Shown piece by piece: positions 11,274 through 37,518 of a stretch of 64,000 nt of DNA. The position numbers and the translations under genes were made by a program. The number at the start of each line of letters is the position of its first letter. The stretch's first letter is position 1. This DNA comes from a virus. Under the pieces are notes generated by a model. It had not been told where the DNA came from. It saw only the letters and a list, made by a program, of their open reading frames with translations, and did no database searches. The stretch lies in IMG/VR virus record IMGVR_UViG_3300046804_003780. One strand, given 5' to 3'.

Positions 11274-11294
11274 AAAAGTGGCCCTAAGGCCACT
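11274..11294 (-). terminator. intrinsic terminator closing the tmRNA transcript
   Basis: Minus strand AGTGGCC-TTAG-GGCCACT followed by a T run. Confidence 0.8.
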
Positions 11295-11615
11295 AAACTA
11301 TTTTTGGTTACAAGGCATAGTTGCCCCGAAGATCATGCTGCTAGAGCAAAAACCTCATCGTTAGCTGCGTTTGCAGTTATAGTTTTGCTTGATTGACAGT
11401 CATCGCCTACTGTGTTGTCCATATCCTTACTAATTGCCCTGTCGAAACCAAATTCAGGCCCATCATAAGAGGATTATAGCAAATGCAATCACTATGGCTG
11501 CTAAACTATAAACAATTGTTTCGCCTACTTGATACATTCTAATCTCCTTATGGTGGACCTGCCCGGGGTCGAACCGGGGTCCAGAACACCTTTCATTCAA
11601 CTTCATACAACAATT
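11295..11615 (-). ncRNA. ssrA: circularly permuted (two-piece) tmRNA
   Basis: The acceptor piece (T-arm CCCGG-UUCGACC-CCGGG, then CAGGUCC-A-CCA ending at 11551) lies upstream of the coding piece starting GGGCCUGAAUUUGGUUUCGAC at 11461. GGGCCUG/CAGGUCC gives a 7-bp acceptor stem with G3.U70. P2 pairings are 11435-41/11582-88 and 11414-18/11607-11. Tag ORF 11374-11333 reads ANAANDEVFALAA*. Outer ends are approximate. Confidence 0.93.
11463..11537 (-). CDS. 24-aa hydrophobic peptide MYQVGETIVYSLAAIVIAFAIILL within the tmRNA intervening segment
   Basis: AAGGAG at 11549-11544, 6 nt before the ATG; ORF fills the 89-nt spacer; single TM-like helix. Confidence 0.6.
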   Translation of the reverse strand: MYQVGETIVYSLAAIVIAFAIILL

Positions 11616-11742
11616 CTTTAAGCTGTTGACAATATACTTGACATTGCCCACACCTATGATCCAGCTCAAAAATACGCTGAATTAATTCCTCTTTTGTCTT
11701 AAAATCTGATTCTTTAATATTTCTACAAACACAAATAATCAT
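11593..11742 (-). CDS. Bfd-like [2Fe-2S] ferredoxin (49 aa), not in the ORF track
   Basis: MIICVCRNIKESD...HRCGQC has the CxC...CGxC pattern of bacterioferritin-associated ferredoxins; starts 1 nt after the upstream stop. Confidence 0.65.
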   Translation of the reverse strand: MIICVCRNIKESDFKTKEELIQRIFELDHRCGQCQVYCQQLKELLYEVE

Positions 11743-11743
11743 A

Positions 11744-11881
11744 TTAGTCAAAAAGATTTTCATTAGTATCTTTAGGCTTTATCCACTCATGATACACAAG
11801 TAGCATTGCTATTGAGATGCAACCCATAAGCATAACGCCCAAAAGAAACCCGATGATAAAATATAATTGCTCAGTTCCCAT
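11744..11881 (-). CDS. small single-TM membrane protein (45 aa), not in the ORF track
   Basis: MGTEQLYFIIGFLLGVMLMGCISIAMLLVYHEW...; downstream of TAAATA at 11908-11903. Confidence 0.55.
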   Translation of the reverse strand: MGTEQLYFIIGFLLGVMLMGCISIAMLLVYHEWIKPKDTNENLFD

Positions 11882-21663: not shown

Positions 21664-24600
21664 TTAGTCACTTTTTAAGAAATTTGCTGGTATAGTGTTG
21701 CTAATTTGCAGTGGATCACCATTAGCAGAATAATCATCACTATTCCAAATTTTGTTATAATAAAACGGATCTAGAATATCTTTTGTTGAAAAACTCAAAA
21801 CATATGAATATTTGTCCTGTGTTGGGAGAATCGCAGTTCCTTCTGCTCCCCTGACAAAATTAGTTATAGTGTTATCTTCAATATTAATATTTTTAAATCT
21901 AATTTTTTCGCCGTTTATTATTATTGTATTACCAAATCGCAATACAAATTCTAAAGCATCTCCGTCTGTTACACCTGAGGTGAAAATTACCTGAGTTGTA
22001 GAATTTACTGTATTAAGATAATATGAGGTTTTAGCTAACTCAAGTCCTGTTACTAAATTATTTACAGTTAACAAAACTATATCTACTATGTTGTAGTTTA
22101 AGTAGGAGTAAATCTTTTGCGTTGTTATGTCATAAGATGCATAAGAAACCGTTGATGTTATATCGACCAATTTAGTTACATCATCAACGTAGATTTTAGT
22201 ATCAGTAGGATAAATTGGTCTAACTAACCAAGTGCGATTTTCAATATTGCTGTTAGCAATCACCATTTCGTTATTTTTGTTTACTGTTAAAGTATACCAA
22301 AGTTCATTTGGAGTAGGAGAGGGCATATAACTAGTAACAATAATTGTATTGCCAAGTGCAATAGGAGACATTATACTTAATCTATTATTTGGCTGATTTA
22401 TACGCAAATTATTAGGTGTAACTCTAGTACCATTTATATGTACAAACAATCTATTTGTATCTATAATATCAAGTGTAGGTTGATTAATTGAAATTGTGTT
22501 TGTATATTTCCAAATAAAGCCGCCAGAACCTACTCCGTTAGAATAGAATGTTCCGTAAGTGTTACCTATTACAGGTACTGAAAGATTAAAATCACTATAA
22601 AGCTCATATCTATAATATGTAACTGCATTCTCAACATATGTTGGCAAAACTCTTACATAAAAAATATTATTATTAATTTCAGTAATATTTTGAACTCCAT
22701 CTATTAATACTTGATCTTGATTTACGAAAAAAGCATTTGTAGCTGTTGTAACTACAACAGGTGTAGCAGGAGTATTTATATAATAAATTGGAGTTACTCT
22801 TATAGATGTTGACGTTTGCGTTACGAAAAATTGATTTTGAGTATCGTTAAATGAAGTTACACTAACTATTGTATTAGCAGCAATTGATGGTATAACAGTT
22901 AATGTAGTTCCAACAATTGTGTAGTCAATAGTATTTCTTGCACGTATTCCATCAATTTCAACTACCGCATTGTTAGGATTGTTTCCTCCCATATTGTTAG
23001 TTAATGTAAAAGTTTTTGGTCCACTTACGTACTGAAAAACTTGAGTTTCAGGCATACAATATTGATATATTGTGTTTGCAGGGCCGTAAATTGCAAAACT
23101 AACATACTGAGTAGCTAAATTAATAATAGATGTAAAAACAATGGTAATTGCATTTGATTTATTTGGTTCTATTTTATAATCAACATTGTTTATTTTTTTA
23201 ACCCCATTAATATACACTACTGGAAATAAATATACTCCATCTTTATATGGATAATTTGTGTCTATGTAACTTACATTTTTCTTTGCATCAAACTTAACAG
23301 GAACATTATCAGATGTACCTTTAACTTCTTGATTTCCGCCTCCTAAACTATAGACTTCAAAATAAATTTTTTCTGTAGGACTTAATGGTGAAGTTAATGT
23401 TACAACCTTAAAAACCCAATCTATTGATTGTATTTTAACTAAACTTGTAGGGGTAGGCACTTGATTAACAGTGTAAATGCGTGTTGCTCTATTATTAGTA
23501 TTCGAAATTATATAAACTGCAATTTGTGTTGCGTATGGTGATAAATTAGCAAAACTAAATGCAGTAGAGTTACCTAAATCAAATATTCCGCTATTTACAT
23601 AAAATCCAAAATTTTCGTATACAGTAGGATCCCAAAGTGATCCAGGTGTAGTCTTTACTGTAAGCTGAAGATTATCTGTTATCAATGCTGGTACCATTTC
23701 TTCTGGTCCATATCCTGATAAGAATGTTTCTCCTTTTATGTTATATTCAGGTTCATTAGCAGTTAGGAAAGAAATATTTTCCCAATCTATTACATTGCTA
23801 CTACGTAAAATTGTTGAGTTTTCACCTACTGCAATTAAATAATTGCCATCAAATTCAATTTCATTTAAATTATTTGAACTTATTTGTGAGGTTTGACTCC
23901 ATGTTTCTCCGTCTGAGCTATAAAGTATGTAACCATTATTACAAATTACTATATAGGTGTTTAGAGCATAAATGCCGTGATTTATTTGTTGATTAAACGA
24001 TGGTCCTAATATGGTAGCTACATTCCAGTTGCTTGCGTTGGTTGACCAGTAAATTTTACCAAAATCACCTGCAGCTATAATTTTTGTATTTGAACCAAAT
24101 ACTGTGTTAAAATTTACATCAAATGTTTGATTAGTATTGGTCCAAGTTATGCCATCGTAACTTATTACGACTCTAGCTTGGTCAGCAAATACTGGTGAAG
24201 GAGTGTCTGGACCTTCTATAATAGATGTTCCATTTCCAACTGCGATAAATCCTTCGAAACTGGTTGCGTCAGCTCCTGGTATATATGCAACTGATTTTAA
24301 AACGTTTGGTAATCTACTGCCAAAACTATACCCTGTTCCCCAGCTTGTTGCATTAATACTACTCAAAACATTATTACCAACAGCTACGTAATTATTATTG
24401 TAGTACACAACATCGTATAGTTCATCATTAGGAGTTTCTACAGATAGGGTATCAAACCCTGCAACATCAAACGGAGCATCATCATAAACTGTGTATGAAC
24501 CTACACTTACCCAGTTAAATCCATCATAGCTTATGAGCAGAGGAGCACTAGCATTCAATGCACTAATTACGTAAAAAGAACCTGAGTAAATTATTCTAGT

Positions 24601-27600
24601 CACATTAATAGGTGTATCACTTATTTTTTTAAATGTCCAGTTTCTACCATCAATACTATATAAAACAGTTGCATTCGTAGCTGCATTACCAATTGCTACA
24701 TATTTGGCCCCGTCATATACTATACTTTTTATATCAATTTCTTTTGGATAAAACGGCTGTCCTTGTAAAATTACATCTAATTCAAAATCATCATTAAATT
24801 TATTACCTAAATTAGTACCATTAGGATATTCTAATCCTGTCATTAATAATGGTAAATGTTTACCAGGCATATTGATAGTTGGTTGGTAATAAGCAATAAT
24901 TCTGTCTAACGCATTTATAAATGGGTAATCACTTTGTAATAACTCCCATTTAGTAAAATCAAAAGTTGCGTCACTATTTGCCACAATGCACTTATACAAT
25001 TTATTATTATAAGTGACCAATGATGCTGCAGGAATAGTGAATGGTTCAGGATAAAAACCAATATCTCCTGCGGTAAATATGAATGGAGTAGCCCCTGTAT
25101 TTTTTACAGGATTAATTAACGTTGCATCGTAAAATAATCGGCATTTTGTTGCACTTATTGGTATCGTATAATATTCATCAAATGCATTGGAACATATACC
25201 ACTTAAACTATAAAAAACTATGGCTCCGGATAAAGCAAAAGTAACAGTAATTATTAAATCATTTGCCGGTGAAGAGCCTCCCAAAAGTGCTCCTGATATT
25301 GTTATAACGTCTCCGGTAGTGTAAATATTTCCAAAATCTTTTATGTCAATATCATACTCATTTGACACAGTTGTGCCATAGATTCTTGGGCTAGTAACCC
25401 AAATAATGGCACCACCAGAACCTGAATTATCATAGATATATGGAGTTGTAAGTCTGGCTACTTTATAGAAATAAAGTTTGGTCTTATTAAGATATCCAGC
25501 TGCTAGACTAGTATTTGTGTAATTAAATGTTACAATGACATTATTTGTACCAGATTCTGTTGTTACTGCTGATATTGGAACAGTGGCCCCTTGTAGGCTT
25601 GACAAGAATACAGGTTTAGCAACACCTTCAACAATAAATTGTGTTATTGATCCGGCTAAGGTTACGCTTACAACAGTTATTGTACAACTATTTGTAGGAG
25701 CAGTTCCTCCCAATAAATTACCTGGTATCGTAATTACATTTCCTGCTTGATAATTTAATCCTCCACTATTTAAAATTGCTGTGTACACACCAACGTTATT
25801 GGCAGTTGAATAAAAATCAGGTGGCTCGTCTTGGTTACCATAAATCCAAGCATATACATCAAATAAAGCTCCTGATCCTCCCGCAGGACTTACGTTTCCT
25901 GAAACAGATGGGAAAGGTATTGCAGTAGCAAGCTTACTTGCATAGCTTGCATCATTTCCTATGCTATTATAAGTTGAGATGTAAAATTGATTTGGCTCCC
26001 AAACAGTAACCTCAGGTCTATAACTAGTTCTGTCAAATTTTAATACAGGAGTAATTTGTCTTGTAGGAGCATTACTTGATATTGGAGCCAATCTAGCACC
26101 TAATGTTAACACATGATTATTACTTGGAGTTCTTCCTTGGACTAAAATTAATCTATGTGTATCAGTTAAAGCATTAATTTTTGAAATGTAAAATGCAATA
26201 GCAGTAGGTCTATTTTGATTTGCAATAGTAACTGCAGGTTTTTTAGTTCCATATTCAATTAATCTTATATAATAATATTGATTATCTATTAATCCCAAAA
26301 TAGTTGATAAATTGCTACCTTTACTGTATTTTAATAAATCTCCTGTTTCAAACAATTTAAATGGAACGTTTATAGTATAATTTGTATAGTTTATATCAGA
26401 GGTATTAAATTTATGTTCAATTGACGGTTCAATAATTAACTCAGGTAATACCTTATATCCTTCACCTGAATTTAAAACAGTAACAGCAACAACTTCTCCT
26501 GCTGACATTTGGGCCTTAAGGGACGCTTGTACTTTAGGAGCAGGAAAAACTTCTGTATTTACGTAACTTACAATATTTGGTGGTTCTGTGTATCCTCTAC
26601 CACCATATATAACACTTACGGCAGGCAAATCTATAAAGATTTTTGTTCCTGGAAAATGATCTACAACTTCAGTATCTAATGCACCTCTTGTTAATCCAGA
26701 TAATATTCCCAAATCTCTGTCAACTGTGTTATAACCTATATATTCATTATCAATTTTAATCACGCCTACTGTTGGATATCCAAATGCATTATCAACAACA
26801 ATTATTTTTGTTGCGACTGGGACATATTCACGCAGTAAACCAATAAAATAATTTTCTTTTCCTTGCAGTTTTACTCCGTAGTTATTAAACCATTGATTAT
26901 ACTGTGGTTCTTGCCATATTTTATCAGAAGAATTATATTGAGATTCTAGCAACGTGTCACTAAAAACTAGTTCAGGAGTAATAAAAGAATCAAGTGTTGC
27001 ATTCCATTGAGCAGGTAAATCAAAATCAGAAATATCTCCGTCATATAGATTTGTCTTTGTATATTTTAAACTAAATTCTTTAAGTTTTACTCTATATGGT
27101 TTAACCTCATTGATATATCCATAAAGAAAATCTTCATTGTCACGTTGGAAATTTTTAGTTTGCTCTAATTCTCTTAAAGTGTGTTCTACATCTAAAAATG
27201 AGGTTTTGTTTAACCAAGGTAAATAGTTACCAAATTCTTCTGTTTCGGTTATAATATATTGAAATAGTAAAATTAGTCCTTGATTTCTATAAATTAATAG
27301 GTCATCAGTGAAAACTTCTTCATTTAATCCACGTATGATATTGTAGGTTTCTACTGACGGGAAACTGTCATAAGGTGTGCTATCGTAAAAACTGTCCCCA
27401 AATCCTATTCCGTTAATGCTATAATCATAGAGAGATTTTTTGATTGCAATTGTCCCTAGCTCTAGTCCGATTCGGTTCCAATTATTATTTTGATATAAAT
27501 AAACTTCACGCTTACCGTTACTGTTAGCATTTACTCCAACTATCATATTCTCAAAAGCATTTAACTTTTCTAAATCGTAATATTTTGGAACGTCAATATC

Positions 27601-30600
27601 AGTTCTTGTTGAATCTGAATAACCTTCTGCCCACCAGTTTACATATTCCCAATAATTGTTTGTGTCAAAATCATCTCCGGAAAGTGTGAAAAACGCAGGA
27701 GCATTTAACCCTGTTGTAGCCACTCCTCCCAATGTAAGGAAGCTAGGATTTTTCAACTCAGTTATAGGAAACTTAATCATTACATTATTTGCAAACTGCA
27801 CATAATTTTCCAAAGCCCGTAATCTGTTATAGAAAAAACTTTGGCTTGGTCGCAAATTAGTGCCAGTTTGTAATAATCTAGGTAAAAATGGGTTAGGAAC
27901 AGATTGTCCTAACAAATCAACTCCTGAAAAACTATCTAATAATTTTTGATATAAACCATTAGGAGTGACTAGGTTATTATACAATGTGGGGAGTCCAGGT
28001 AGAAAATCTTCTGCATACCCATCACGTATCAATTTAAATTCTGTGTGAGCAACATCATTCCCACTATCTGTTTTATATCCTAAATGCAAACTTGTAAAAG
28101 TAGCACTAATATATTCAAACACATTATACAAAGCATACACATTTTGTTTTAATGGTGCTAAAAAAGCTATACCAGAAGTAATAGGATTAGAAATGTAGGA
28201 TGAAACTATATTATCCGCAAGTGTTTTTGCATTTGATAAAACGGTCCCAATATTTTTAACCCAATAATAATATCTTGTTACTATAGTACCACTTTCAACA
28301 ATTTCGTTTAATGTTGTGTAGGCATCAATATCGTAAACAGTACCAACACCAGTATAATCTATAGGTAAAACGTCACTTTCTATCCACGTGTAGACTGATA
28401 CTGTGCTGCCTGGAAACACTGTTCCCCAGTATCTACTATTATATAAAATGTTATTTTGATGATAATCAATAAATTTGGTTTCAGATGTGTCGAACCATAA
28501 TTTTCCAACGTATTCTTGTCCCCAAACAGATTTCCTTACATTGTTATTATTATATCCTGCAGGGTCTACGCTTGATATGTAATCTAAGTTTTGTGCGACA
28601 ACACCTAATAATTTTCCTTGTAAAGGATCAATATAATCTAAACTTACAATGTTTAAATTATTTAAATTGTTATATATTGAAACTCCATGTAGTTTGTTTA
28701 TGTCTACAGTATTGGTGGGGTTTCTATAAATATACCAATTAGGTTTTCCAGAAGTATTTCTAAAAATATTAACTCTACCATTTTGACTACCACTTAGATA
28801 TGTGGGAGATCCAATTATAATGTTGTAATTATTAAACGAAATATTAGTTCCATAATACGGGGCACTGCCTAAAGTTGTGGTTGTATCGTTGACTAATTGA
28901 CCAAGAACAAATTTTCCAATATTGTCTATACTTTCGTTGTACGCACCTAAATAGTCATATACATATGCTGATCCTGCATCTGCAACAACATCAGTAAACA
29001 CTGTAAAGTTATTATCAAAAATAGTGTCATTGCTATAATCTTCGTCATCAGTAAAATCAAATGTCGTTTGAGTATATCTATTACTTGTAGGAGCAGACAC
29101 AACAAAGGAATTTAATTCATTAAATTTTATTGATGTTCCGTATTGAGTATTATTTTGTATGTTAGGATCGTGTAAAGTTTGTGTTTTTTTATAGAAAGTT
29201 ATACCTAAACTTGCAAAATTTGCTTCTGCGAATACTGTTAAATTAAGTTTATCTTCCAAAACATTTAAACTTTGATTGATTAATTGTATTACAAGTTTAT
29301 TATCATTTGTTTTTGATGCTATTACATTTGGAATATTTGCCTCGTTTATTGCAATAACCGCATTATTAATTCCAGTTGCAGGTAAAGTCACCGCAAATCC
29401 ATTAATTAAAATGTTAATTTGACTTGATAAATTGTAAACACTAGAACCAGTGATTATGCCAAACTTTTTACCTGCATTAGTATATCTATAGACTGTACCT
29501 TCTGTTCCTGTTGCATCTACGATATCAAATGGAGAACCTACTAATAATTCATTACCTAAGTTATTATTACTTAATCCCTTACCATAAAGTATACCTACTC
29601 TTGGATTGGTAACTTCGCTGTGTCCTATGAGTGTTTGACTTAAAATAAAATCATTACCTTCAACCAATATTAAATCACCTGCTTTCAACACAATTTGTTC
29701 TTTAATTGTTAAAATATTTGTTGATAGTGTATAATTAGAACTTGATAAAATATTACCATTTAAAAATACACTTATAGAATTTGTAGGTGTCCATGCTAAG
29801 GCAAAACTAGTAGCAATTGTTTGAATGGGGGTAAATCTTGACTCAAATATTTGTTTAACTCTATTGTAAATGTATACAACTCCTGTATCCGTAACAGCAT
29901 TAAAGTCTTGATTAGGCGCACTTATGAAAAGTTGTGTTCCATTGTAATTTGTAGAAATGTTTGATCCAAAATTTGTTGCTGACCCTGCGCCGGTAATTGT
30001 TGCAACATTTGTATAGTCATAATAGGCTCTGTAAACTGTAGTGCCTATATTAGCTCCTGCAAAGAAATAACCTTCTATGGTAAAGGTTGTTAAATTACTA
30101 CCTGCGTCAAATTCTCCTGTGATGATTTTGTAGGTTGTTGATCCATTTACATTAGAGAAACTAACCATTTGTCCTTCTAATAATAATGATCTTCTATCTC
30201 CTGAAACTCTAAATTGATTACCGTTAACAGATATAGCAGAGGTTAATGGATATCCAATACTTGTAAAAGTTAAATTTGAATTTTTTCTATACACAAATAC
30301 TTGTCTTGTAGAACCTCTACCTACAAAAAAGTAATTACAATCGTCACTCATCACTACTTTATCTGCAGCGCCACTTCCGCTTATATTAAATGAATTTTGT
30401 AGGGCAACAGCTTCAATTTTTTCAGTCGAAACTAGTTCATAAATGTAAACTATGCTGGTTGTTGCAGATTTTAATATGGCTAAAAAGTTTTGTTTTTTAT
30501 CCATACTTGAACCAAACCCAGTTGGGCTTGATGGTATTGTAATTGTTTCGTCTAAATTCCAAAAGTTAATGTTTGATTCATATTTGTATCTATAAACATT

Positions 30601-33600
30601 TCCAGTGCCTGAATCTCCTAAGAAATAACCTAATTTAGCATCAAAAGCAACACTACTTCCAAAAGATGAAGTTGGCACTGGCTTGTTAAAACTTGATGAT
30701 AATTGATAGTTGATACCTTTTCTATAAACTGCCCATGTGCCATTAATGTTTTCATCCACCCATACTGTGCTTAGGACAAATTCAGTATCAATGAGATTTA
30801 AATTACTAATATCTTTTGGTGATGAAACTCTTTGATTTTGTAGTTTTGCAACTATTCCAGTTGACTCAATGTTTGATATAGATAATGGCAAACTTAAATC
30901 TATAACAACTGAGTTTGCATCACTAATTCTTACTATAATATAGAAACCATCTACAAAGCTTGAATAATTCAAAATCATTATCACAGTATTGACTGCTAAA
31001 TTATGCGGTTTATCAAAAAATACTGTGCAAGTATCATTTAAATTATTAACTACATTTATTATAGCAACTGGAATGTTTGCGTTAAGAGATGTTGTGGCGT
31101 AAATTCTCCAATCACCTTTGAAATCTGCTATCCAAATATATTCGTTTTTATAAATGTCGTAAATTGAAACTTCATTTTGATTTAAATTTGCAACTTTAAA
31201 TGAATATGTTTTAATATCTTCAAAATTCACATATCCAGCCGATGGTAATTGATTAAATGTACCAGAAGGTAAAAGTGGAAGTATATTGATATTATTTGGA
31301 ACACGTCCGTAATTACTTAAAGCATAAATTGGTATTTCTTGCATTGAACCTGGTTCATTAACATCTTTTATGATACTAACAATAGCAGGATTTCCATTTA
31401 ATTTTTGTTGATCCAGTTTAAATTCAATAAAATTTTGATCTAATACACCACCATAATTTCCTATATTGATTGCCCAATTTTCATAAGTTGTATAATTTAT
31501 ACCACCAGTTTGTAACGTAATGTTTTGAATTGCAGAAGTAGCTTGTTTACTTCCTTTTTCGACAATCATTGTCTTATAAAGATTTACTTGTGATATGTCA
31601 TCCAAATTTGCAGCAGCTAAATAATCTCTTGGTCTATATCCAATTAAAGAAAAAGATAATAAATCAGCGTCATTTTCTAAGTTTGCTTGGTACGAATTAT
31701 AATATAAAGTACTCTCATATGCCCTGCTACTTGCATTAGGTAATAATCCTTTTTGTATTAAATCATAGTCTACTTTTGTCCAAAGATTTTGTTGAAAGGA
31801 GGCTGCTGGCTGAATAATTTCATTTGAAGCATAATAATTATTTTTATATTTTACTATTACGCCTTTTGTATATTTGGTATTTGCCTGCCAATCTATAACA
31901 TTATCCTGATTTAAAATAAATCCTTTTGTATCTACCGTGCCGTCCCAAGTTGCAGTTTTTGCTCCTTTTAACAACATACGATATTGTCTTAAGCCAGTAT
32001 TTGGATCATAAATTAAATCATTAAACAATGTTACATTGTCAAAAACAATTGCGTGTTCGATATTACTTAAATTAGCATTAAAGTATGCAATAGTATCATC
32101 AACCTTTATAGGAATCGCAGAAAATTCAACTCCATTTCTAATAATTGACATATCCTTAATTTGTATTGGAATTAAATTTTGATTTAATACATAATTTTGA
32201 GCTTGTAGTGTTAGAGGTTGAACAATAGCATTTTCTTTATTAATTACAATTTTTTTAGCCAAAGGATTTATATTTAATATTGAACCTGTTTCCCAACCTG
32301 CTTGAATCCAAGCTAAAACCTCTTGAATCATTTGATTCCAATTAAGAATGAGGTTATTTTCAACCTGATTAAATTCGAGGCCTTGTGAACTTAAGTAATT
32401 ACCATAAGAATTAATAAATTCAGCAAGTGCCTGAGGTGTAGAAAACTCGGTGCTATATGGAACTATAACAACTTTACCGCTTGAATTTTTTGAAATTCTA
32501 ACTGACAATGAGCCAGATGTTATGGTTTCATACTTTCCATTTACCAATGGAGCAAATGTTTTAAAATAAATTTTATTTTGACTATTACCATATACTTGAT
32601 AACCAGTATCAGTTTTTTGAATTATAATTGAACTATAAACAATCGTGTCAAAAGGTTGATTTTCATGTAGTAGGACTTGATAACTTTCGTCTGGAATTAA
32701 TAAACTATTATTTCTGCTCGTTGGGGAACCTTTATCAACATAAAATTTTAACAACTCTTTGTCGCTAAATCCTGCCAATCGATAAACCAATCTTACATCT
32801 AAATTGTTAAGATATTCTGTTAAAATATCATATCCTGAATTTCCTGTACTCTGAACATAGTCCACTATCCAATTAATGTAACTATGCTGTGCTGTTCCGC
32901 TCCCGTATAATACAGATCCTGTAGTTTGAAATCTAAACTTGTTATTGACTAGATACTGATCAAATTCATCATTAAATTTATAGGTGTCTAAATTTTCTCC
33001 CAACGCATAAAATTTTGCAGGTTTACATAACGCTAAAATTTTTACCAAGTCGTAAGGCCAAGAACTGCTCTTTAAATAACTAAATTCAGCAGGACCCCAA
33101 TCACCAACTTTCCATTGTGTTTGGAACGTCAAGTTGTCATAGTTACCTATAACAGAATTTAATGGATCAACTAAATTCCCCAAATCGTCCACTGGTAAAA
33201 CTTTTAAGAGTCCTGGTCTTTTTCTTGATTCAATTATAATTGGATTTCCGTCATTATAATCATAACCATTTTCCATATCAGTCCATAATACTAAGTTATT
33301 TTTAGTATACGGCGGTAATCCATAATAACTATCCCACCATTTAGGCTTATTGGTGTACCCAATCATTTCCCAAGGAGTTAAGTTTGGAGTTACTGTGTCA
33401 AAAAACCAGTTATATAATCCTTTCCAATTGCCCCTTTTTACTAAAGTATTATCTAATCTATTTGTTGCTTGGTAATAGTTATATGTGTATGCATCTGTTG
33501 CACTGTAATATTGTGATTTATAATCAATTCTATTTTGACCTACCCAATTTAAAAAGGACATTGAGTACAATTGTAAAATTTCATCATAGTTATAGTCAGT

Positions 33601-36600
33601 ATTTCTAAATTGTCCAGGTAGAACCTCATCACTTGAAATTGGAATTTTAGAACTTACTTTTAAATTGTTATAAATTCGGCACTCAAATTCAAATATTACT
33701 TGGTCACGATAATCTGTTAGATATCCATTTTTATATTCACCGTATAATGTTGTTAACGAACCATCGTGACCTTTTATAAACCAAGTAGGATTTACATAAG
33801 AAGTATCATAAACAACTTCAGGTATTGTTGCTGGATAAAATCCTAATTTTGTAGGAGTATTTGGTACATAACTACCATATGTTTGATTGTATTCATTAAC
33901 AACAATTACGTCTCCAATTACCAAATCAGTATACACGTTGACTAAGGGTTGATCCGAACTAACTATATAATCTACGTCCCTAATTAATTGTCGCTGAACT
34001 AACACTCCATTTACATTTCTTAAAAGATAAAGTAATACAGAGTTATAATTTGCTGAAGTAAAATCATATATTTTGCTTAAAGAAAATTGCGATTGATTTA
34101 CATCGGCATTGAAAGAATACCTATTGGTTATATATGCTCCTTTACTAGGTAACATATCTGACCAAAAGAATGAATTGCTTTGTGTTTTGTATGAAGTTAT
34201 TTCATTGATAGCGTTATCTAATATAGTTGACGCTATTTGATAGCTTTCATATGGTGTTTTAGATACCACATCTATGAGTAGACTTTTATATTTAATATAT
34301 TCAACTGAATTAAAGTTAAGAGAATCAATTAAATTAAAGTTTGCATTTTTTAAGAATGCCCCAGTTAATGATAAAGGAGCACTATTTTGAATTATTTTTG
34401 TTCCATATCTTACTAGGTTTGGTAAATCTCTGTAATTATTTGCACCAAATATTTGACCAACAATACGTTTACTGTTTGTACAAATACTCAAATAATGATT
34501 TTTTATGTCTCCTAAATTAGGACTCACTATTTGCGCATTAAAGATATTGTTTTCTAAGTTTGTTGGTATCGTAAAATACCCCGTAGTGCTTACCTTATCA
34601 CTATAAATTAATATTTGTATAGGCGTTTCTAATATTGGAGTAGAATTTAAAGTTATTGTCGTTGTATTTCCTTGCACTGCAAAAGTAAATTCAGTATCAA
34701 ATAAAATATTATCTCTAACATAAACTTGCACTACCGGCCATGCAGTAGAATCTGTGGATTTAGCTGGTACATCGCAAATAAAAATTGGACTGCCCTTTGC
34801 TGGGTCATAATTAAAATTAAATGCTTGATATTGAATACTATTTGAAATTGCAGTTTGCCAGCCTAGTTCTCTCACATAATCGGTTTTAGACTGATAATTA
34901 TATATGTATCCTGTATTAACATCCTGTGTTGTTTGAATTCCATTTAACACATAATTAAATTTATCTGTGTTATATGAAACATTAAATTGAATATCACCTA
35001 TGTTGTTTACTGAACTATATTTTAAAGGAAATCCTAATATAGGATCATTGTTCCCAGTACCTGTCGCATATTGAAATAGTGAAGTTCCAATAAAACTACT
35101 ACTGTTGTAATAATCTGTGTCCCCAAAGCTTAATCCATTTGAATCAAAAATATCAAACAGCGGTGGTTGATTTACTGTTGTTTTTAACTGCCCTTGTATC
35201 CAAGTTGATCCATTAAACCAATATGTATATCCTTTTCTATCTTCACCTAACAATACTACGGTTTGATCAAAACTTTCAACATCTCCGTTAGCTATTTTTG
35301 TAAGTGTTATTACAGGTGGTGATTGAGTTATTACTACATTGCCGGTTGCATTATCTAATTGAATAAAATTAGACAAATTTGGATCTGTGCTTAAGCGCAG
35401 TGATGTAGAATTTGGTATATCATATACATAGTATTTTGTAAATGCTGTCAAATTGCCTATGTTTTGATTTAAAGAAACTAAACTTCCTACAACAAAACTT
35501 GTAGAATCTGTTACAGTAAGTCTGTCTGTAGAGGCGCTAGTAGAACTTATTACTGTCGATGTCTGTGTAGCAACCGACGTGGAAATATAATTTACTCTAT
35601 AAATTTTGTTTCTAACATTTACATCTGTGTCTGCACTGAATATAACCTTACAACCATCAAACAATCCAAAACTTAAGCCGTCTGGATAATACTGTAATTG
35701 ACTGGCTACTTGTGTAAATGCGTCGGTCGCAGTTATATCAAAATAATCAACCGGAGGTTTTGCTTGAATGCCTAAATTGAATAATTTTAAGTTAGGGTAA
35801 AATTCAATAATTGGTCTTTTAGCTCTAGCCTCATTACTATTAATAACATTAAGTAAATTTTTACTGTTAGTATGTTTAATAGTTTCTTGTATGACCTGTG
35901 AGTGGAACCATCTATTACCTCTAGTCCACGCATTTAAATTTTGGGCTGCTCTGTTAATAGTGATATAATCTTGTGTTATAGGTGATTCAACTATATCAGA
36001 ATATGGTGCAATATCATATGGTGCAGCATCATATGGATTGTAAACACTTTGTGAATACGATTCTGGTGTTACTAACGTAGAGGCTGAAATTAATTTAATA
36101 CCTGTTCCAACTCCTTCTACATAATATTGATCCGTTTTATATTTCTCAGGTACAACGTCACCAGAAAAACTTATTTTTAATCCATTAGTAAATTTAACGT
36201 TGTTTGGTGAGATGTAAGTTAGTTTGTTTAAAATATCAGTTTCAACATTTATATAATTGGCTTCATTACTATCTACTATTTTAATAACGCCAATCTTTTT
36301 AAGATTTTCACTGTCCTGATAATACAATGTATCTAAGGGTGCAGTGACTTCAGGTATTATTTGTATTTCTCCTGTTTGTAATCTTACAAATTTTTTAAAA
36401 ATATATTGATTTCCAATTAATACCGTAATATTTGTATTTGTTGGTATTACATTTAATGGGGTTAAATTAATTATTGGATCACCTGGCTCATCTGTTTCTT
36501 CATAGGTTATTTTGAAGAAATACTGACTTACATTTACAAAAGAAGCTGAATCGAACCCTACAGGGTTAGTGCTAACTGCGTCAAAACCTCCGTTGTCATA

Positions 36601-37518
36601 AAAGGTATCAACTGCTGTAATTTGTAATGGCGGAGCACCATAAAACATTAATGTCTTGTCTAATAAATTTGTAGCACCATCAATATTTCCAATTTGGCTA
36701 AGTCTTTGTCCGTGTATATTATAAAAAAATTGAGTTGTAACTAAATCGACATTAACATTTCCTGTATAGTTTTGAGATTGCTGGGCGTCTGCATATGGTA
36801 CATTAAAAATCATCACCCCTTCTGAGGTGCCATTATTTTCTAATCCAAAAATGTCTCTTGTACTTACATTAGGCCTATTTGGAAGCACGCCAGAAAGACC
36901 TGGAGCGGTCTGTATCCAAAATTTAGAATTTTGATCTACATTAAAATAATATGTTCCACCACGTAATAATGTTATTGTTGGGTTAAATTCTTCAATAGAA
37001 AAATTGTCTTGTATAAACAAAAACTCGTTAGTTTGACTTTTAACATCAAAAAAGGAAGTTAGATTGATAGGCAATGGTTCAATATTAATTACATCTGGTC
37101 CAAAAGGTAACCAATAATATTGACTATAGTTAGACAATTTATCCAAATCTGCAAAACTATCCCAACTGTAAAATTGATTATTAAATAACAAAGAATTATT
37201 TGTGACTGGCGCCCCTTGTAGTTTAAGGGCATCAATCATTTCAGGATAGGTAATAAAATCTAATGCTCTGTTTGTTTCATTTTTTTTAAAAATAACTGCA
37301 GGTTCTAATTGATAATCAGTTCTTGTTTTATTAATTTCAGGTATGTAATAAGAGTTTGGAGTCAACCCGTATTCAAATCTTCTGCCAATATAACCTTGAA
37401 GCTTTTCTAAATCTTGTTGTTGAACAAGTTGATCCAATGTGGCGGATAAAAAGTTTTCATTAGGAGTCGTTTTAAAAATTTCTGGAAGAAAATCAATTGT
37501 TCTAACTTGCGCTACCAT
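21664..37518 (-). CDS. giant (5284 aa) virion/baseplate-associated protein
   Basis: 15.9-kb uninterrupted ORF right after the baseplate wedge gene; beta-rich modules, FG-GAP-like and S.DG..W (BNR-like) propeller repeats. Confidence 0.85.
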   Translation of the reverse strand: MVAQVRTIDFLPEIFKTTPNENFLSATLDQLVQQQDLEKLQGYIGRRFEYGLTPNSYYIPEINKTRTDYQLEPAVIFKKNETNRALDFITYPEMIDALKLQGAPVTNNSLLFNNQFYSWDSFADLDKLSNYSQYYWLPFGPDVINIEPLPINLTSFFDVKSQTNEFLFIQDNFSIEEFNPTITLLRGGTYYFNVDQNSKFWIQTAPGLSGVLPNRPNVSTRDIFGLENNGTSEGVMIFNVPYADAQQSQNYTGNVNVDLVTTQFFYNIHGQRLSQIGNIDGATNLLDKTLMFYGAPPLQITAVDTFYDNGGFDAVSTNPVGFDSASFVNVSQYFFKITYEETDEPGDPIINLTPLNVIPTNTNITVLIGNQYIFKKFVRLQTGEIQIIPEVTAPLDTLYYQDSENLKKIGVIKIVDSNEANYINVETDILNKLTYISPNNVKFTNGLKISFSGDVVPEKYKTDQYYVEGVGTGIKLISASTLVTPESYSQSVYNPYDAAPYDIAPYSDIVESPITQDYITINRAAQNLNAWTRGNRWFHSQVIQETIKHTNSKNLLNVINSNEARAKRPIIEFYPNLKLFNLGIQAKPPVDYFDITATDAFTQVASQLQYYPDGLSFGLFDGCKVIFSADTDVNVRNKIYRVNYISTSVATQTSTVISSTSASTDRLTVTDSTSFVVGSLVSLNQNIGNLTAFTKYYVYDIPNSTSLRLSTDPNLSNFIQLDNATGNVVITQSPPVITLTKIANGDVESFDQTVVLLGEDRKGYTYWFNGSTWIQGQLKTTVNQPPLFDIFDSNGLSFGDTDYYNSSSFIGTSLFQYATGTGNNDPILGFPLKYSSVNNIGDIQFNVSYNTDKFNYVLNGIQTTQDVNTGYIYNYQSKTDYVRELGWQTAISNSIQYQAFNFNYDPAKGSPIFICDVPAKSTDSTAWPVVQVYVRDNILFDTEFTFAVQGNTTTITLNSTPILETPIQILIYSDKVSTTGYFTIPTNLENNIFNAQIVSPNLGDIKNHYLSICTNSKRIVGQIFGANNYRDLPNLVRYGTKIIQNSAPLSLTGAFLKNANFNLIDSLNFNSVEYIKYKSLLIDVVSKTPYESYQIASTILDNAINEITSYKTQSNSFFWSDMLPSKGAYITNRYSFNADVNQSQFSLSKIYDFTSANYNSVLLYLLRNVNGVLVQRQLIRDVDYIVSSDQPLVNVYTDLVIGDVIVVNEYNQTYGSYVPNTPTKLGFYPATIPEVVYDTSYVNPTWFIKGHDGSLTTLYGEYKNGYLTDYRDQVIFEFECRIYNNLKVSSKIPISSDEVLPGQFRNTDYNYDEILQLYSMSFLNWVGQNRIDYKSQYYSATDAYTYNYYQATNRLDNTLVKRGNWKGLYNWFFDTVTPNLTPWEMIGYTNKPKWWDSYYGLPPYTKNNLVLWTDMENGYDYNDGNPIIIESRKRPGLLKVLPVDDLGNLVDPLNSVIGNYDNLTFQTQWKVGDWGPAEFSYLKSSSWPYDLVKILALCKPAKFYALGENLDTYKFNDEFDQYLVNNKFRFQTTGSVLYGSGTAQHSYINWIVDYVQSTGNSGYDILTEYLNNLDVRLVYRLAGFSDKELLKFYVDKGSPTSRNNSLLIPDESYQVLLHENQPFDTIVYSSIIIQKTDTGYQVYGNSQNKIYFKTFAPLVNGKYETITSGSLSVRISKNSSGKVVIVPYSTEFSTPQALAEFINSYGNYLSSQGLEFNQVENNLILNWNQMIQEVLAWIQAGWETGSILNINPLAKKIVINKENAIVQPLTLQAQNYVLNQNLIPIQIKDMSIIRNGVEFSAIPIKVDDTIAYFNANLSNIEHAIVFDNVTLFNDLIYDPNTGLRQYRMLLKGAKTATWDGTVDTKGFILNQDNVIDWQANTKYTKGVIVKYKNNYYASNEIIQPAASFQQNLWTKVDYDLIQKGLLPNASSRAYESTLYYNSYQANLENDADLLSFSLIGYRPRDYLAAANLDDISQVNLYKTMIVEKGSKQATSAIQNITLQTGGINYTTYENWAINIGNYGGVLDQNFIEFKLDQQKLNGNPAIVSIIKDVNEPGSMQEIPIYALSNYGRVPNNINILPLLPSGTFNQLPSAGYVNFEDIKTYSFKVANLNQNEVSIYDIYKNEYIWIADFKGDWRIYATTSLNANIPVAIINVVNNLNDTCTVFFDKPHNLAVNTVIMILNYSSFVDGFYIIVRISDANSVVIDLSLPLSISNIESTGIVAKLQNQRVSSPKDISNLNLIDTEFVLSTVWVDENINGTWAVYRKGINYQLSSSFNKPVPTSSFGSSVAFDAKLGYFLGDSGTGNVYRYKYESNINFWNLDETITIPSSPTGFGSSMDKKQNFLAILKSATTSIVYIYELVSTEKIEAVALQNSFNISGSGAADKVVMSDDCNYFFVGRGSTRQVFVYRKNSNLTFTSIGYPLTSAISVNGNQFRVSGDRRSLLLEGQMVSFSNVNGSTTYKIITGEFDAGSNLTTFTIEGYFFAGANIGTTVYRAYYDYTNVATITGAGSATNFGSNISTNYNGTQLFISAPNQDFNAVTDTGVVYIYNRVKQIFESRFTPIQTIATSFALAWTPTNSISVFLNGNILSSSNYTLSTNILTIKEQIVLKAGDLILVEGNDFILSQTLIGHSEVTNPRVGILYGKGLSNNNLGNELLVGSPFDIVDATGTEGTVYRYTNAGKKFGIITGSSVYNLSSQINILINGFAVTLPATGINNAVIAINEANIPNVIASKTNDNKLVIQLINQSLNVLEDKLNLTVFAEANFASLGITFYKKTQTLHDPNIQNNTQYGTSIKFNELNSFVVSAPTSNRYTQTTFDFTDDEDYSNDTIFDNNFTVFTDVVADAGSAYVYDYLGAYNESIDNIGKFVLGQLVNDTTTTLGSAPYYGTNISFNNYNIIIGSPTYLSGSQNGRVNIFRNTSGKPNWYIYRNPTNTVDINKLHGVSIYNNLNNLNIVSLDYIDPLQGKLLGVVAQNLDYISSVDPAGYNNNNVRKSVWGQEYVGKLWFDTSETKFIDYHQNNILYNSRYWGTVFPGSTVSVYTWIESDVLPIDYTGVGTVYDIDAYTTLNEIVESGTIVTRYYYWVKNIGTVLSNAKTLADNIVSSYISNPITSGIAFLAPLKQNVYALYNVFEYISATFTSLHLGYKTDSGNDVAHTEFKLIRDGYAEDFLPGLPTLYNNLVTPNGLYQKLLDSFSGVDLLGQSVPNPFLPRLLQTGTNLRPSQSFFYNRLRALENYVQFANNVMIKFPITELKNPSFLTLGGVATTGLNAPAFFTLSGDDFDTNNYWEYVNWWAEGYSDSTRTDIDVPKYYDLEKLNAFENMIVGVNANSNGKREVYLYQNNNWNRIGLELGTIAIKKSLYDYSINGIGFGDSFYDSTPYDSFPSVETYNIIRGLNEEVFTDDLLIYRNQGLILLFQYIITETEEFGNYLPWLNKTSFLDVEHTLRELEQTKNFQRDNEDFLYGYINEVKPYRVKLKEFSLKYTKTNLYDGDISDFDLPAQWNATLDSFITPELVFSDTLLESQYNSSDKIWQEPQYNQWFNNYGVKLQGKENYFIGLLREYVPVATKIIVVDNAFGYPTVGVIKIDNEYIGYNTVDRDLGILSGLTRGALDTEVVDHFPGTKIFIDLPAVSVIYGGRGYTEPPNIVSYVNTEVFPAPKVQASLKAQMSAGEVVAVTVLNSGEGYKVLPELIIEPSIEHKFNTSDINYTNYTINVPFKLFETGDLLKYSKGSNLSTILGLIDNQYYYIRLIEYGTKKPAVTIANQNRPTAIAFYISKINALTDTHRLILVQGRTPSNNHVLTLGARLAPISSNAPTRQITPVLKFDRTSYRPEVTVWEPNQFYISTYNSIGNDASYASKLATAIPFPSVSGNVSPAGGSGALFDVYAWIYGNQDEPPDFYSTANNVGVYTAILNSGGLNYQAGNVITIPGNLLGGTAPTNSCTITVVSVTLAGSITQFIVEGVAKPVFLSSLQGATVPISAVTTESGTNNVIVTFNYTNTSLAAGYLNKTKLYFYKVARLTTPYIYDNSGSGGAIIWVTSPRIYGTTVSNEYDIDIKDFGNIYTTGDVITISGALLGGSSPANDLIITVTFALSGAIVFYSLSGICSNAFDEYYTIPISATKCRLFYDATLINPVKNTGATPFIFTAGDIGFYPEPFTIPAASLVTYNNKLYKCIVANSDATFDFTKWELLQSDYPFINALDRIIAYYQPTINMPGKHLPLLMTGLEYPNGTNLGNKFNDDFELDVILQGQPFYPKEIDIKSIVYDGAKYVAIGNAATNATVLYSIDGRNWTFKKISDTPINVTRIIYSGSFYVISALNASAPLLISYDGFNWVSVGSYTVYDDAPFDVAGFDTLSVETPNDELYDVVYYNNNYVAVGNNVLSSINATSWGTGYSFGSRLPNVLKSVAYIPGADATSFEGFIAVGNGTSIIEGPDTPSPVFADQARVVISYDGITWTNTNQTFDVNFNTVFGSNTKIIAAGDFGKIYWSTNASNWNVATILGPSFNQQINHGIYALNTYIVICNNGYILYSSDGETWSQTSQISSNNLNEIEFDGNYLIAVGENSTILRSSNVIDWENISFLTANEPEYNIKGETFLSGYGPEEMVPALITDNLQLTVKTTPGSLWDPTVYENFGFYVNSGIFDLGNSTAFSFANLSPYATQIAVYIISNTNNRATRIYTVNQVPTPTSLVKIQSIDWVFKVVTLTSPLSPTEKIYFEVYSLGGGNQEVKGTSDNVPVKFDAKKNVSYIDTNYPYKDGVYLFPVVYINGVKKINNVDYKIEPNKSNAITIVFTSIINLATQYVSFAIYGPANTIYQYCMPETQVFQYVSGPKTFTLTNNMGGNNPNNAVVEIDGIRARNTIDYTIVGTTLTVIPSIAANTIVSVTSFNDTQNQFFVTQTSTSIRVTPIYYINTPATPVVVTTATNAFFVNQDQVLIDGVQNITEINNNIFYVRVLPTYVENAVTYYRYELYSDFNLSVPVIGNTYGTFYSNGVGSGGFIWKYTNTISINQPTLDIIDTNRLFVHINGTRVTPNNLRINQPNNRLSIMSPIALGNTIIVTSYMPSPTPNELWYTLTVNKNNEMVIANSNIENRTWLVRPIYPTDTKIYVDDVTKLVDITSTVSYASYDITTQKIYSYLNYNIVDIVLLTVNNLVTGLELAKTSYYLNTVNSTTQVIFTSGVTDGDALEFVLRFGNTIIINGEKIRFKNINIEDNTITNFVRGAEGTAILPTQDKYSYVLSFSTKDILDPFYYNKIWNSDDYSANGDPLQISNTIPANFLKSD

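Follow-up and report, generated by a model that had tools for sequence, protein, structure and literature searches.

We analysed a 64,000-nucleotide (nt) stretch of viral DNA (IMG/VR record IMGVR_UViG_3300046804_003780), referred to below as the window, which carries a circularly permuted transfer-messenger RNA (tmRNA) gene whose two pieces are separated by an intervening segment, or spacer, of 89 nt. The spacer holds a 24-codon open reading frame (ORF) for the peptide MYQVGETIVYSLAAIVIAFAIILL, led by a Shine-Dalgarno (SD) sequence. Comparison with related spacers supported the conclusion that this ORF has the properties of a genuine coding sequence under selection, its product being a small hydrophobic peptide of membrane type. 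The explanation that we favour, with a probability of about 0.7, is that the spacer serves as a small gene cassette that can be exchanged horizontally and that encodes a 24-residue single-helix membrane peptide. The precursor RNA would plausibly be both a tmRNA precursor and a messenger RNA (mRNA).

A preliminary description, made from the letters of the sequence, had placed the encoded CCA end at position 11551 of the minus strand, followed by UAAGGAG, 6 nt, an AUG, 24 codons and a UGA that ends 1 nt before the mature 5' G of the coding piece (11461). This anatomy was exact, both in the sequence and in the ARAGORN prediction, whose domain boundaries (end of the 3' tRNA domain and start of the 5' tRNA domain) coincide exactly with the ends of the spacer. 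The 6 nt between the SD and the start codon are ATTAGA (11543-11538), and the ATG lies at 11537-11535; an identical SD with identical spacing was present in 21 of the 45 coding spacers of the census described below. The best 15-residue Kyte-Doolittle window of MYQVGETIVYSLAAIVIAFAIILL scored 2.84, and the C-terminus of the peptide is a hydrophobic IILL without basic residues. The permuted tmRNA that had been described around the ORF was borne out by two Rfam models, RF01850 for betaproteobacterial two-piece genes (122.7 bits, cut-off 84) and the general model RF04321 (129 bits, cut-off 47), each matched end to end, and by ARAGORN, which classed the gene as 'Permuted', with the 3' tRNA domain preceding the 5' tRNA domain.

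Five distinct relatives of the peptide were found, solely inside tmRNA spacers. Two of them (loci L095 and L308 of our sample) encode a peptide identical to that of the window and differ from it by synonymous changes alone; the other three encode MYQVGETLVYSLAAIVIAFAVILL (L317), MYQVGQTIVYGLVAIVVTFAIVLL (L296) and MYKVGETIYYSLVAIFIVALILSL (L321). In this window-type set the ratio of nonsynonymous to synonymous polymorphism (pN/pS) was 0.36 in frame, compared with 0.80 and 1.00 in the two off-frame controls. The window and L296 differ at 16 nt but at only 6 residues, all of them conservative changes (simulation P=0.004), and in the four closest window-type sequences five of the eight variable sites are synonymous third positions, the others being I-to-L and I-to-V changes. 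A larger sister group, the MND/MDD type, shares leader, length and FA(I/L)(I/V)LL end with the window type, and its tmRNAs carry quite different tags. For the MND-type set the pN/pS was 0.30, against 0.83 and 5.05 off-frame, and one pair of this type (L084 and L153) differed at 13 nt with a single residue change. Throughout the superfamily (20 unique spacers) the ORF is 22-25 codons long and stops at the UGA of the spacer junction (position -1) in all members, and every insertion or deletion preserves the frame. It had been proposed beforehand that a genuine ORF should keep its SD and reading frame, with a synonymous bias, in homologous spacers; all of the homologues kept the SD, the ATG and the ORF, length changes were frame-preserving only, and the bias was that given above.

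The wider occurrence of spacer ORFs was surveyed in a sample of permuted tmRNA genes collected through anchors outside the spacer, namely a conserved 5' motif of the coding piece (viral contigs) and a degenerate back-translated tag (viral and metagenome contigs). Spacer boundaries were taken from ARAGORN, and the sample comprised 194 permuted genes, 147 of them unique. All census frequencies are sample estimates among the matches listed; the sequences are not phylogenetically independent, and binomial and Fisher values are indicative only. An SD-anchored pattern, TCCACCATAAGGAG, returned mostly loci without a permuted tmRNA spacer by the T-arm/acceptor-pairing rule, with a handful recovered, and was excluded from the unbiased census. 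A spacer was counted as coding when an SD-like tetramer stood 4-10 nt before an ATG within its first 32 nt, and an ORF as slot-filling when it reached to 20 nt or less from the spacer end, or past it.

By these definitions 45 of the 147 unique permuted tmRNAs had a coding spacer, and the ORF was slot-filling in all 45. In interior shuffles that preserved the stem, slot-filling ORFs with SD and ATG arose in a mean of 2.7 of 147 spacers (about 2%; maximum 9 in 500 trials), and only 24% of the chance SD and ATG cases were slot-filling, compared with 45/45 of the real ones. The coding rate was 33/132 when the SD-anchored sample was left out and 18/57 in the clade defined by the window's tag. At least two further spacers have an ORF with a GTG start codon, so that the census is conservative. 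Slot ORFs are 22-73 codons long (up to 84 codons in a separate extraction of the tag clade) and form about 20 mutually unrelated sequence families. One of them, a 73-residue spacer ORF (L100:329-547 (+)), matched the Pfam family PGDYG at 27.8 bits (cut-off 27) and phrog_419 at 1e-11, and genuine protein genes therefore occupy the slot. Soluble-looking and cysteine-rich proteins occupy it in other relatives. All 24 of the 24 short slot peptides combine a short polar, mostly acidic head with a strongly hydrophobic helix extending as far as the C-terminus, despite their differing sequences.

Sequence comparison shows that the cassette has been transferred among tmRNA backbones that have diverged, the breakpoints falling at the CCA and the mature 5' G. 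The spacers of L095 and L308 are 96-97% identical to that of the window, whereas their tmRNA flanks are 59-82% identical, and the block of high identity begins directly after CCACCA and ends between UGAU and GGG (Fisher 8e-8 and 2e-25). The nearest tmRNA relatives (L327, L280 and L343) have coding pieces 94-96% identical to that of the window, and L327 has an almost identical tRNA-like domain, whereas their spacers are unrelated and non-coding, with about 33% identity. The same pattern held across the sample: 209 of the 309 gene pairs with backbones at least 90% identical had spacers less than 50% identical, and 28 of the 71 pairs with spacers at least 80% identical had backbones less than 80% identical (15 coding, 13 non-coding). 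Non-coding spacers that are 97-100% identical stand on backbones only 70-79% identical (L258/L289, L243/L245, L105/L090 and L031/L051), so that exchange or conservation extends to non-coding cassettes, which may themselves be functional. In shared spacers the synonymous sites are conserved as well, and recent recombination, not extreme selection, is therefore the simplest reading of their similarity. The closest phage by its neighbouring proteins (L316) has a tag half near-identical to that of the window, with a different tRNA-like domain and a non-coding spacer, and this tag half in the tmRNAs of L316 and L244 indicates recombination within the tmRNA gene itself. Both of these genes (L316:3143-3429 (+) and L244:6399-6685 (+)) were recognised as permuted tmRNA by Rfam (120 bits) and were missed by ARAGORN owing to an unusual T-arm.

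The spacer ends had also been described as partly complementary, extending the acceptor stem and burying the SD, and this was confirmed. The strand UAAGGAGAUUA at the beginning of the spacer pairs with UAAUCCUCUUA near its end at 10 of 11 positions, one of them as G-U, and in both the minimum free energy (MFE) and the centroid folds the SD and the AUG are paired in a hairpin that continues the acceptor stem. Pairing of this closing stem is family-wide: the first ten bases of the spacer and the bases just before its last four paired at 9.2/10 positions in coding spacers and at 9.3/10 in non-coding ones, compared with 7.3/10 for re-partnered spacer ends. TGAT likewise stands at the spacer end in 112 of the 147 unique spacers, most of them non-coding. 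Cellular two-piece tmRNAs of the beta type, sampled from three bacterial genomes (L362, L385 and L472, e.g. Azonexus), have spacers of about 29 nt without an ORF, and two of the three have the form CAAGGAC...GTCCTTG. Since the closing stem and UGAU are found in non-coding spacers as well, they are RNA constraints that the ORF has adopted; on this comparison the AAGG stem strand and the UGA look like ancestral RNA features, taken up by the ORFs as SD and stop codon. The junction TGA is the stop of 27 of the 45 slot ORFs, so that their stop lies 1 nt from the processing site, which is significantly above the expectation of one frame in three (binomial 2e-4, without correction for relatedness). 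The last residues of the ORFs with a stop at -1 are LL, FF, SL, FL or IL, as set by the strand opposite the SD. Three points that bear on the spacer were absent from the preliminary description: the closing stem and the UGAU are generic, being present in non-coding spacers too; the nearest tmRNAs have unrelated non-coding spacers; and the spacer is a horizontally exchanged cassette.

About a quarter of the coding spacers (L059, L078, L086, L173, L275, L210, L240, L185, L147, L012 and L332) use another frame, skip the junction UGA and stop 27-81 nt inside the mature tmRNA. At these loci RNase P cleavage would turn the message into a non-stop mRNA.

The preliminary description had regarded the precursor as dual-function, with tmRNA folding and processing either competing with translation of the peptide or releasing it. 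The selected ORF and the occlusion of its SD by the closing stem agree with a dual function, with translation, excision, a role for the peptide and competition with tmRNA processing as presumed parts of it. Release of translation by processing is unlikely: in the predicted fold of the excised 89-mer the SD is again paired, so that processing would silence translation, not release it. A co-transcriptional window, before the 3' strand of the stem is made, fits better. A single precursor transcript would be produced, probably by read-through from two small upstream ORFs, and would end at the terminator behind the tmRNA. The SD would emerge about 75 nt before its complementary strand, allowing ribosomes to load co-transcriptionally. 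A ribosome would then make the peptide and terminate at the UGA, the final base of which lies 1 nt away from the RNase P site, and while translating it would hold the closing stem and the acceptor stem open. When the ribosome left, the stem would close and further initiation would be blocked; the tRNA-processing enzymes would then free the two tmRNA pieces, as they do in cellular two-piece tmRNAs, and the spacer would be discarded. Output of the peptide would be low and tied to tmRNA synthesis.

Because unrelated genes fill the same slot elsewhere, a moron-like accessory membrane peptide is more likely than a component of trans-translation, and it appears to be the most economical reading of the sequence. 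A bolder extension, which we consider speculative, is that the tmRNA processing gap is a dedicated mobile expression slot, with cassettes, whether coding or not, swapped at the RNase P and CCA sites, and that translation and maturation are coupled there, a terminating ribosome licensing or delaying processing and stops inside the tmRNA generating a non-stop substrate for the tmRNA just released. If this were true, it would define a new class of gene organisation: the protein gene would lie in the part of a stable RNA that is thrown away, and the biogenesis of that RNA would regulate it.

The alternative that retains the most weight, although it is unlikely, is that the spacer encodes a type I toxin-like or holin/antiholin-like membrane-damaging peptide whose SD is silenced by 5'-3' pairing, as in hok-type messages, and activated by processing of the precursor. 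The preliminary description had made a similar guess, and the location in a phage and the very short hydrophobic peptide agree with it; so does the predicted sequestration of the SD by long-range pairing of the message ends, the feature by which the spacer resembles a type I toxin message, as a prediction only. However, the refolding of the excised spacer means that processing would silence such a message, not activate it. The peptide lacks a charged C-terminal tail, and no lysis genes are adjacent, the sole endolysin-like match (56920-59481) lying more than 45 kb away; with an IILL end free of basic residues and no linkage to an endolysin, we rejected a holin or antiholin assignment, and the guess is left without specific support. 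The soluble-looking and cysteine-rich proteins found in the same slot in relatives point instead to a site for cargo in general. No antitoxin RNA was identified, a systematic search for an antisense element not having been made.

It is unlikely, too, that the ORF is not translated at all and that the spacer is only a structured processing element whose closing stem makes the acceptor ends accessible to RNase P and to the 3' processing enzymes, in which case the look of an SD and an ORF would be a by-product of the purine-rich AAGG strand, the UGAU and AU-rich sequence. Much of the RNA evidence is compatible with this: the closing stem and UGAU are equally present in non-coding spacers, CAAGGAC already begins the cellular beta-type spacers, the SD is paired in the predicted fold, and non-coding spacers are conserved and exchanged as well. 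Against it stands the coding evidence, namely that the slot is filled in every SD and ATG spacer with ORFs of 22 to 73 codons when shuffles fill it in a quarter of cases, that synonymous bias stands out against the off-frame controls with only frame-preserving indels, that one slot ORF belongs to a Pfam family, and that a polar head and a hydrophobic helix recur in all of the short peptides in spite of their differing sequences.

Direct coupling to trans-translation, with a terminating ribosome gating RNase P cleavage or with the peptide modulating a membrane protease or the quality control of tagged proteins, is very improbable, for although the frequent stop 1 nt from the processing site, the stops inside mature tmRNA that would make a non-stop message in other relatives and the restriction of peptide homologues to tmRNA spacers would suit it, closely related tmRNAs work with non-coding spacers, the slot ORFs are mutually unrelated, and the UGAU is present anyway, so that its use as a stop may be mere convenience.

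Several observations weigh against a peptide-encoding cassette in the window. The window-type subfamily is small (6 sequences), and its three closest members differ at only 2-6 sites. U-rich second codon positions, which give hydrophobic residues, could inflate the coding signal, although the off-frame controls argue otherwise. RNA constraints likewise account for the C-terminal codons, the stop and the SD. The energy of the spacer fold was unexceptional compared with shuffles (z -1.1 to -1.7), and because this thermodynamic support is weak, the stem is argued for by comparative pairing. The nearest tmRNA relatives have no spacer ORF of any kind, and the peptide is therefore dispensable for tmRNA function. 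Searches of 50,697 phage records with the tmRNA (blastn) and the peptide (tblastn) gave no match, although the low-complexity filter may suppress a hydrophobic query. Finally, no sigma-70-like promoter was predicted directly upstream of the window's tmRNA.

Dual-function RNAs and hok-type toxin mRNAs, such as SgrS/SgrT, RNAIII/hld and hok/sok, are familiar cases in which one transcript is both a functional RNA and the message of a small, often hydrophobic peptide, and in which long-range pairing hides the SD. The window resembles them by anatomy alone; in those systems one mature molecule contains both the functional RNA and the ORF, whereas the ORF of the window lies in the discarded part. 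Phage-encoded two-piece tmRNAs are themselves already known, for example from the Methylophilales phage Melnitz and from pelagimyophages (PMC9004378; PMC11915505). The window shares with permuted beta-type tmRNAs (RF01850) the order of acceptor piece, intervening sequence and coding piece, the encoded CCA, an acceptor stem formed in trans with G3:U70, a tag ending in ALAA, a closing stem that starts with AAGG after the CCA, and an aquatic T4-like myophage as carrier. It differs from the cellular beta-type genes sampled in that their spacers are short and non-coding, whereas its own holds a selected ORF led by an SD. In the papers the intervening sequence is treated as absent from mature tmRNA, and the contents reported for it are a tRNA gene or a repeat element only, with no protein-coding genes (PMC9004378; PMC11915505); the 2025 tmRNA database paper describes a tRNA gene and a repeat element in intervening sequences and never mentions ORFs. 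We found no description of protein-coding tmRNA spacers in the literature searched.

The nearest analogue is the ORF-bearing intervening sequence of 23S ribosomal RNA (rRNA). The Coxiella burnetii element (S23p; PMC4990558) is, like the spacer of the window, a stem-bounded, ORF-bearing segment of a stable-RNA precursor that is removed without re-ligation, leaves the mature RNA in pieces and behaves as mobile or selfish; it is 428 nt long and has one conserved ORF family, whose protein is reported to be apparently not made in vivo. In the window, by comparison, the host RNA is a tmRNA, the ORF families of the slot are many, unrelated and equipped with canonical SDs, the selection signal is clear, and there is no sequence relationship to S23p. 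Membership of the S23p class was rejected, the host RNA being a tmRNA and not helix 45 of 23S rRNA, and the product a 24-residue hydrophobic helix without a family match; the spacer is analogous to this class without belonging to it. Comparable, too, are phage morons and those group I introns of tRNA or tmRNA genes that bear an ORF, in that a small accessory gene with its own translation signals sits in an essential or highly expressed locus and is exchanged horizontally, and an intron form of tmRNA has been described (PMC11915505). Unlike group I introns, the window has no detected intron, splicing or ligation, or homing endonuclease, and the insert occupies the gap at which a permuted RNA gene is naturally processed.

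Spacers of this kind are treated as throw-away and are masked by annotation pipelines as part of the RNA gene, so that slot peptide genes (22-80 codons) are systematically missed. If the peptide is made, the locus would be a compact case of one transcript giving a stable RNA machine and a protein, with a built-in timer, since translation would have to take place before the closing stem forms or the precursor is processed. The spacer is a cassette site defined by recombination in abundant aquatic T4-like phages, and so a place for trading accessory micro-genes, and study of the system could shed light on the competition between ribosomes and tRNA-processing enzymes on nascent RNA.

Features of the tmRNA locus in the window. 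Coordinates are positions of the window; all features lie on the minus strand.
Feature	Position	Strand	Basis
Circularly permuted (two-piece) tmRNA gene, beta type, tag ANAANDEVFALAA	11273..11663	(-)	Rfam and ARAGORN
Acceptor piece: P2 5' strand, T-arm, acceptor 3' strand CAGGTCC, discriminator A, encoded CCA ending at 11551	11551..11612	(-)	sequence, Rfam, ARAGORN
Intervening segment (spacer), 89 nt, exchangeable cassette	11462..11550	(-)	ARAGORN boundaries and acceptor-pairing rule
SD UAAGGAG, directly after the CCA; doubles as 5' strand of the closing stem	11550-11544	(-)	sequence
Closing stem, 5' strand UAAGGAGAUUA	11550-11540	(-)	predicted folds and family-wide pairing
24-codon ORF and UGA, peptide MYQVGETIVYSLAAIVIAFAIILL	11463..11537	(-)	sequence; homologues in L095, L308, L317, L296, L321
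Closing stem, 3' strand UAAUCCUCUUA, codons for C-terminal I-L-L	11476-11466	(-)	predicted folds and family-wide pairing
UGAU junction opposite ACCA, provides the stop codon (TGA 11465-11463, T 11462)	11462..11465	(-)	sequence
Start of coding piece: acceptor 5' strand GGGCCUG through tag reading frame; mature 5' G at 11461, tag 11374-11333	11333..11461	(-)	ARAGORN, Rfam
Terminator-like hairpin and U tract at tmRNA 3' end	11277..11294	(-)	also terminal helix of the RF01850 alignment
Small ORF with CxC...CxxC, 49-56 residues by start choice; stop inside tmRNA 5' (P2) region	11593..11763	(-)	conservation
45-residue membrane-type ORF, probably on the same transcript	11744..11881	(-)	42 tblastn matches upstream of tmRNA genes in related loci

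The tmRNA of the window looks functional, judged by its full-length Rfam match, the G3:U70 pair and compensatory changes in the acceptor stem. The T-arm and the acceptor 3' strand with the CCA lie upstream of the acceptor 5' strand and the tag reading frame, which is the permuted order. Read from the sequence, the acceptor stem GGGCCUG/CAGGUCC has seven pairs, including the alanine identity pair G3:U70, and in relatives it changes in a compensatory manner to GGGCCAG/CTGGTCC, GGGCCGG/CCGGTCC and GGGGATG/CATCTCC, each with 7/7 positions paired. The tag frame ANAANDEVFALAA has a resume alanine codon and a C-terminal ALAA degron followed by a stop. A pseudogenised tmRNA was ruled out by the full-length model match and the compensatory acceptor pairs, and a group I intron in the tmRNA gene by the insert lying outside the T-loop, between the CCA and the mature 5' end, and by Rfam finding no intron family in the window. 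Cleavage of the precursor into two pieces with removal of the intervening segment is established for cellular two-piece tmRNAs (PMC11915505, PMC9004378).

Two small ORFs precede the tmRNA on the same strand. The one with the CxC...CxxC motif is conserved in 10 of the 11 loci that gave a match, where it likewise overlaps the start of the tmRNA gene (66-81% amino acid identity overall), and the 45-residue one in roughly 40 related loci. Neither of the two had a Pfam or PHROGs match, and a Bfd-like assignment of the CxC...CxxC ORF was accordingly unsupported. Further upstream, also on the same strand, is the gene of a 732-residue protein with many overlapping repeat-like matches in relatives. The tmRNA thus appears to stand at the end of a small-ORF operon beside this gene, and from the order of the parts we infer one polycistronic precursor that runs from the two small ORFs through the acceptor piece, the peptide ORF and the coding piece to the terminator.

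Across the family, TAAATA occurred within 60 nt upstream of 62 of 144 tmRNA genes, compared with 4 of 144 in a control window, often behind TTGACA by about 17 nt; in 28 genes (e.g. L338, L342, L354 and L102) it lies 13-14 nt before the tmRNA start. This combination looks like a dedicated tmRNA promoter that the window lacks. The usual position of TAAATA is occupied in the window by the CxC...CxxC ORF, and the only such motif in the window, CTAAATA at 11909-11903, lies 22 nt before the ATG of the 45-residue ORF. Neither TATAAATA nor CTAAATA was enriched in the window, so that the CTAAATA before the 45-residue ORF is not callable as a promoter on statistics.

The source contig is an IMG/VR viral contig of 64 kb, estimated to be 16% complete. 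PHROGs matches identify it as a T4-like myophage, and include a baseplate wedge protein (3e-245), a baseplate hub/tail lysozyme, a portal protein (2e-109) and a gp46-like nuclease. Adjoining the baseplate genes, at 21664-37518 (-), is a single ORF of 5,284 residues, which presumably encodes a structural or fibre protein.

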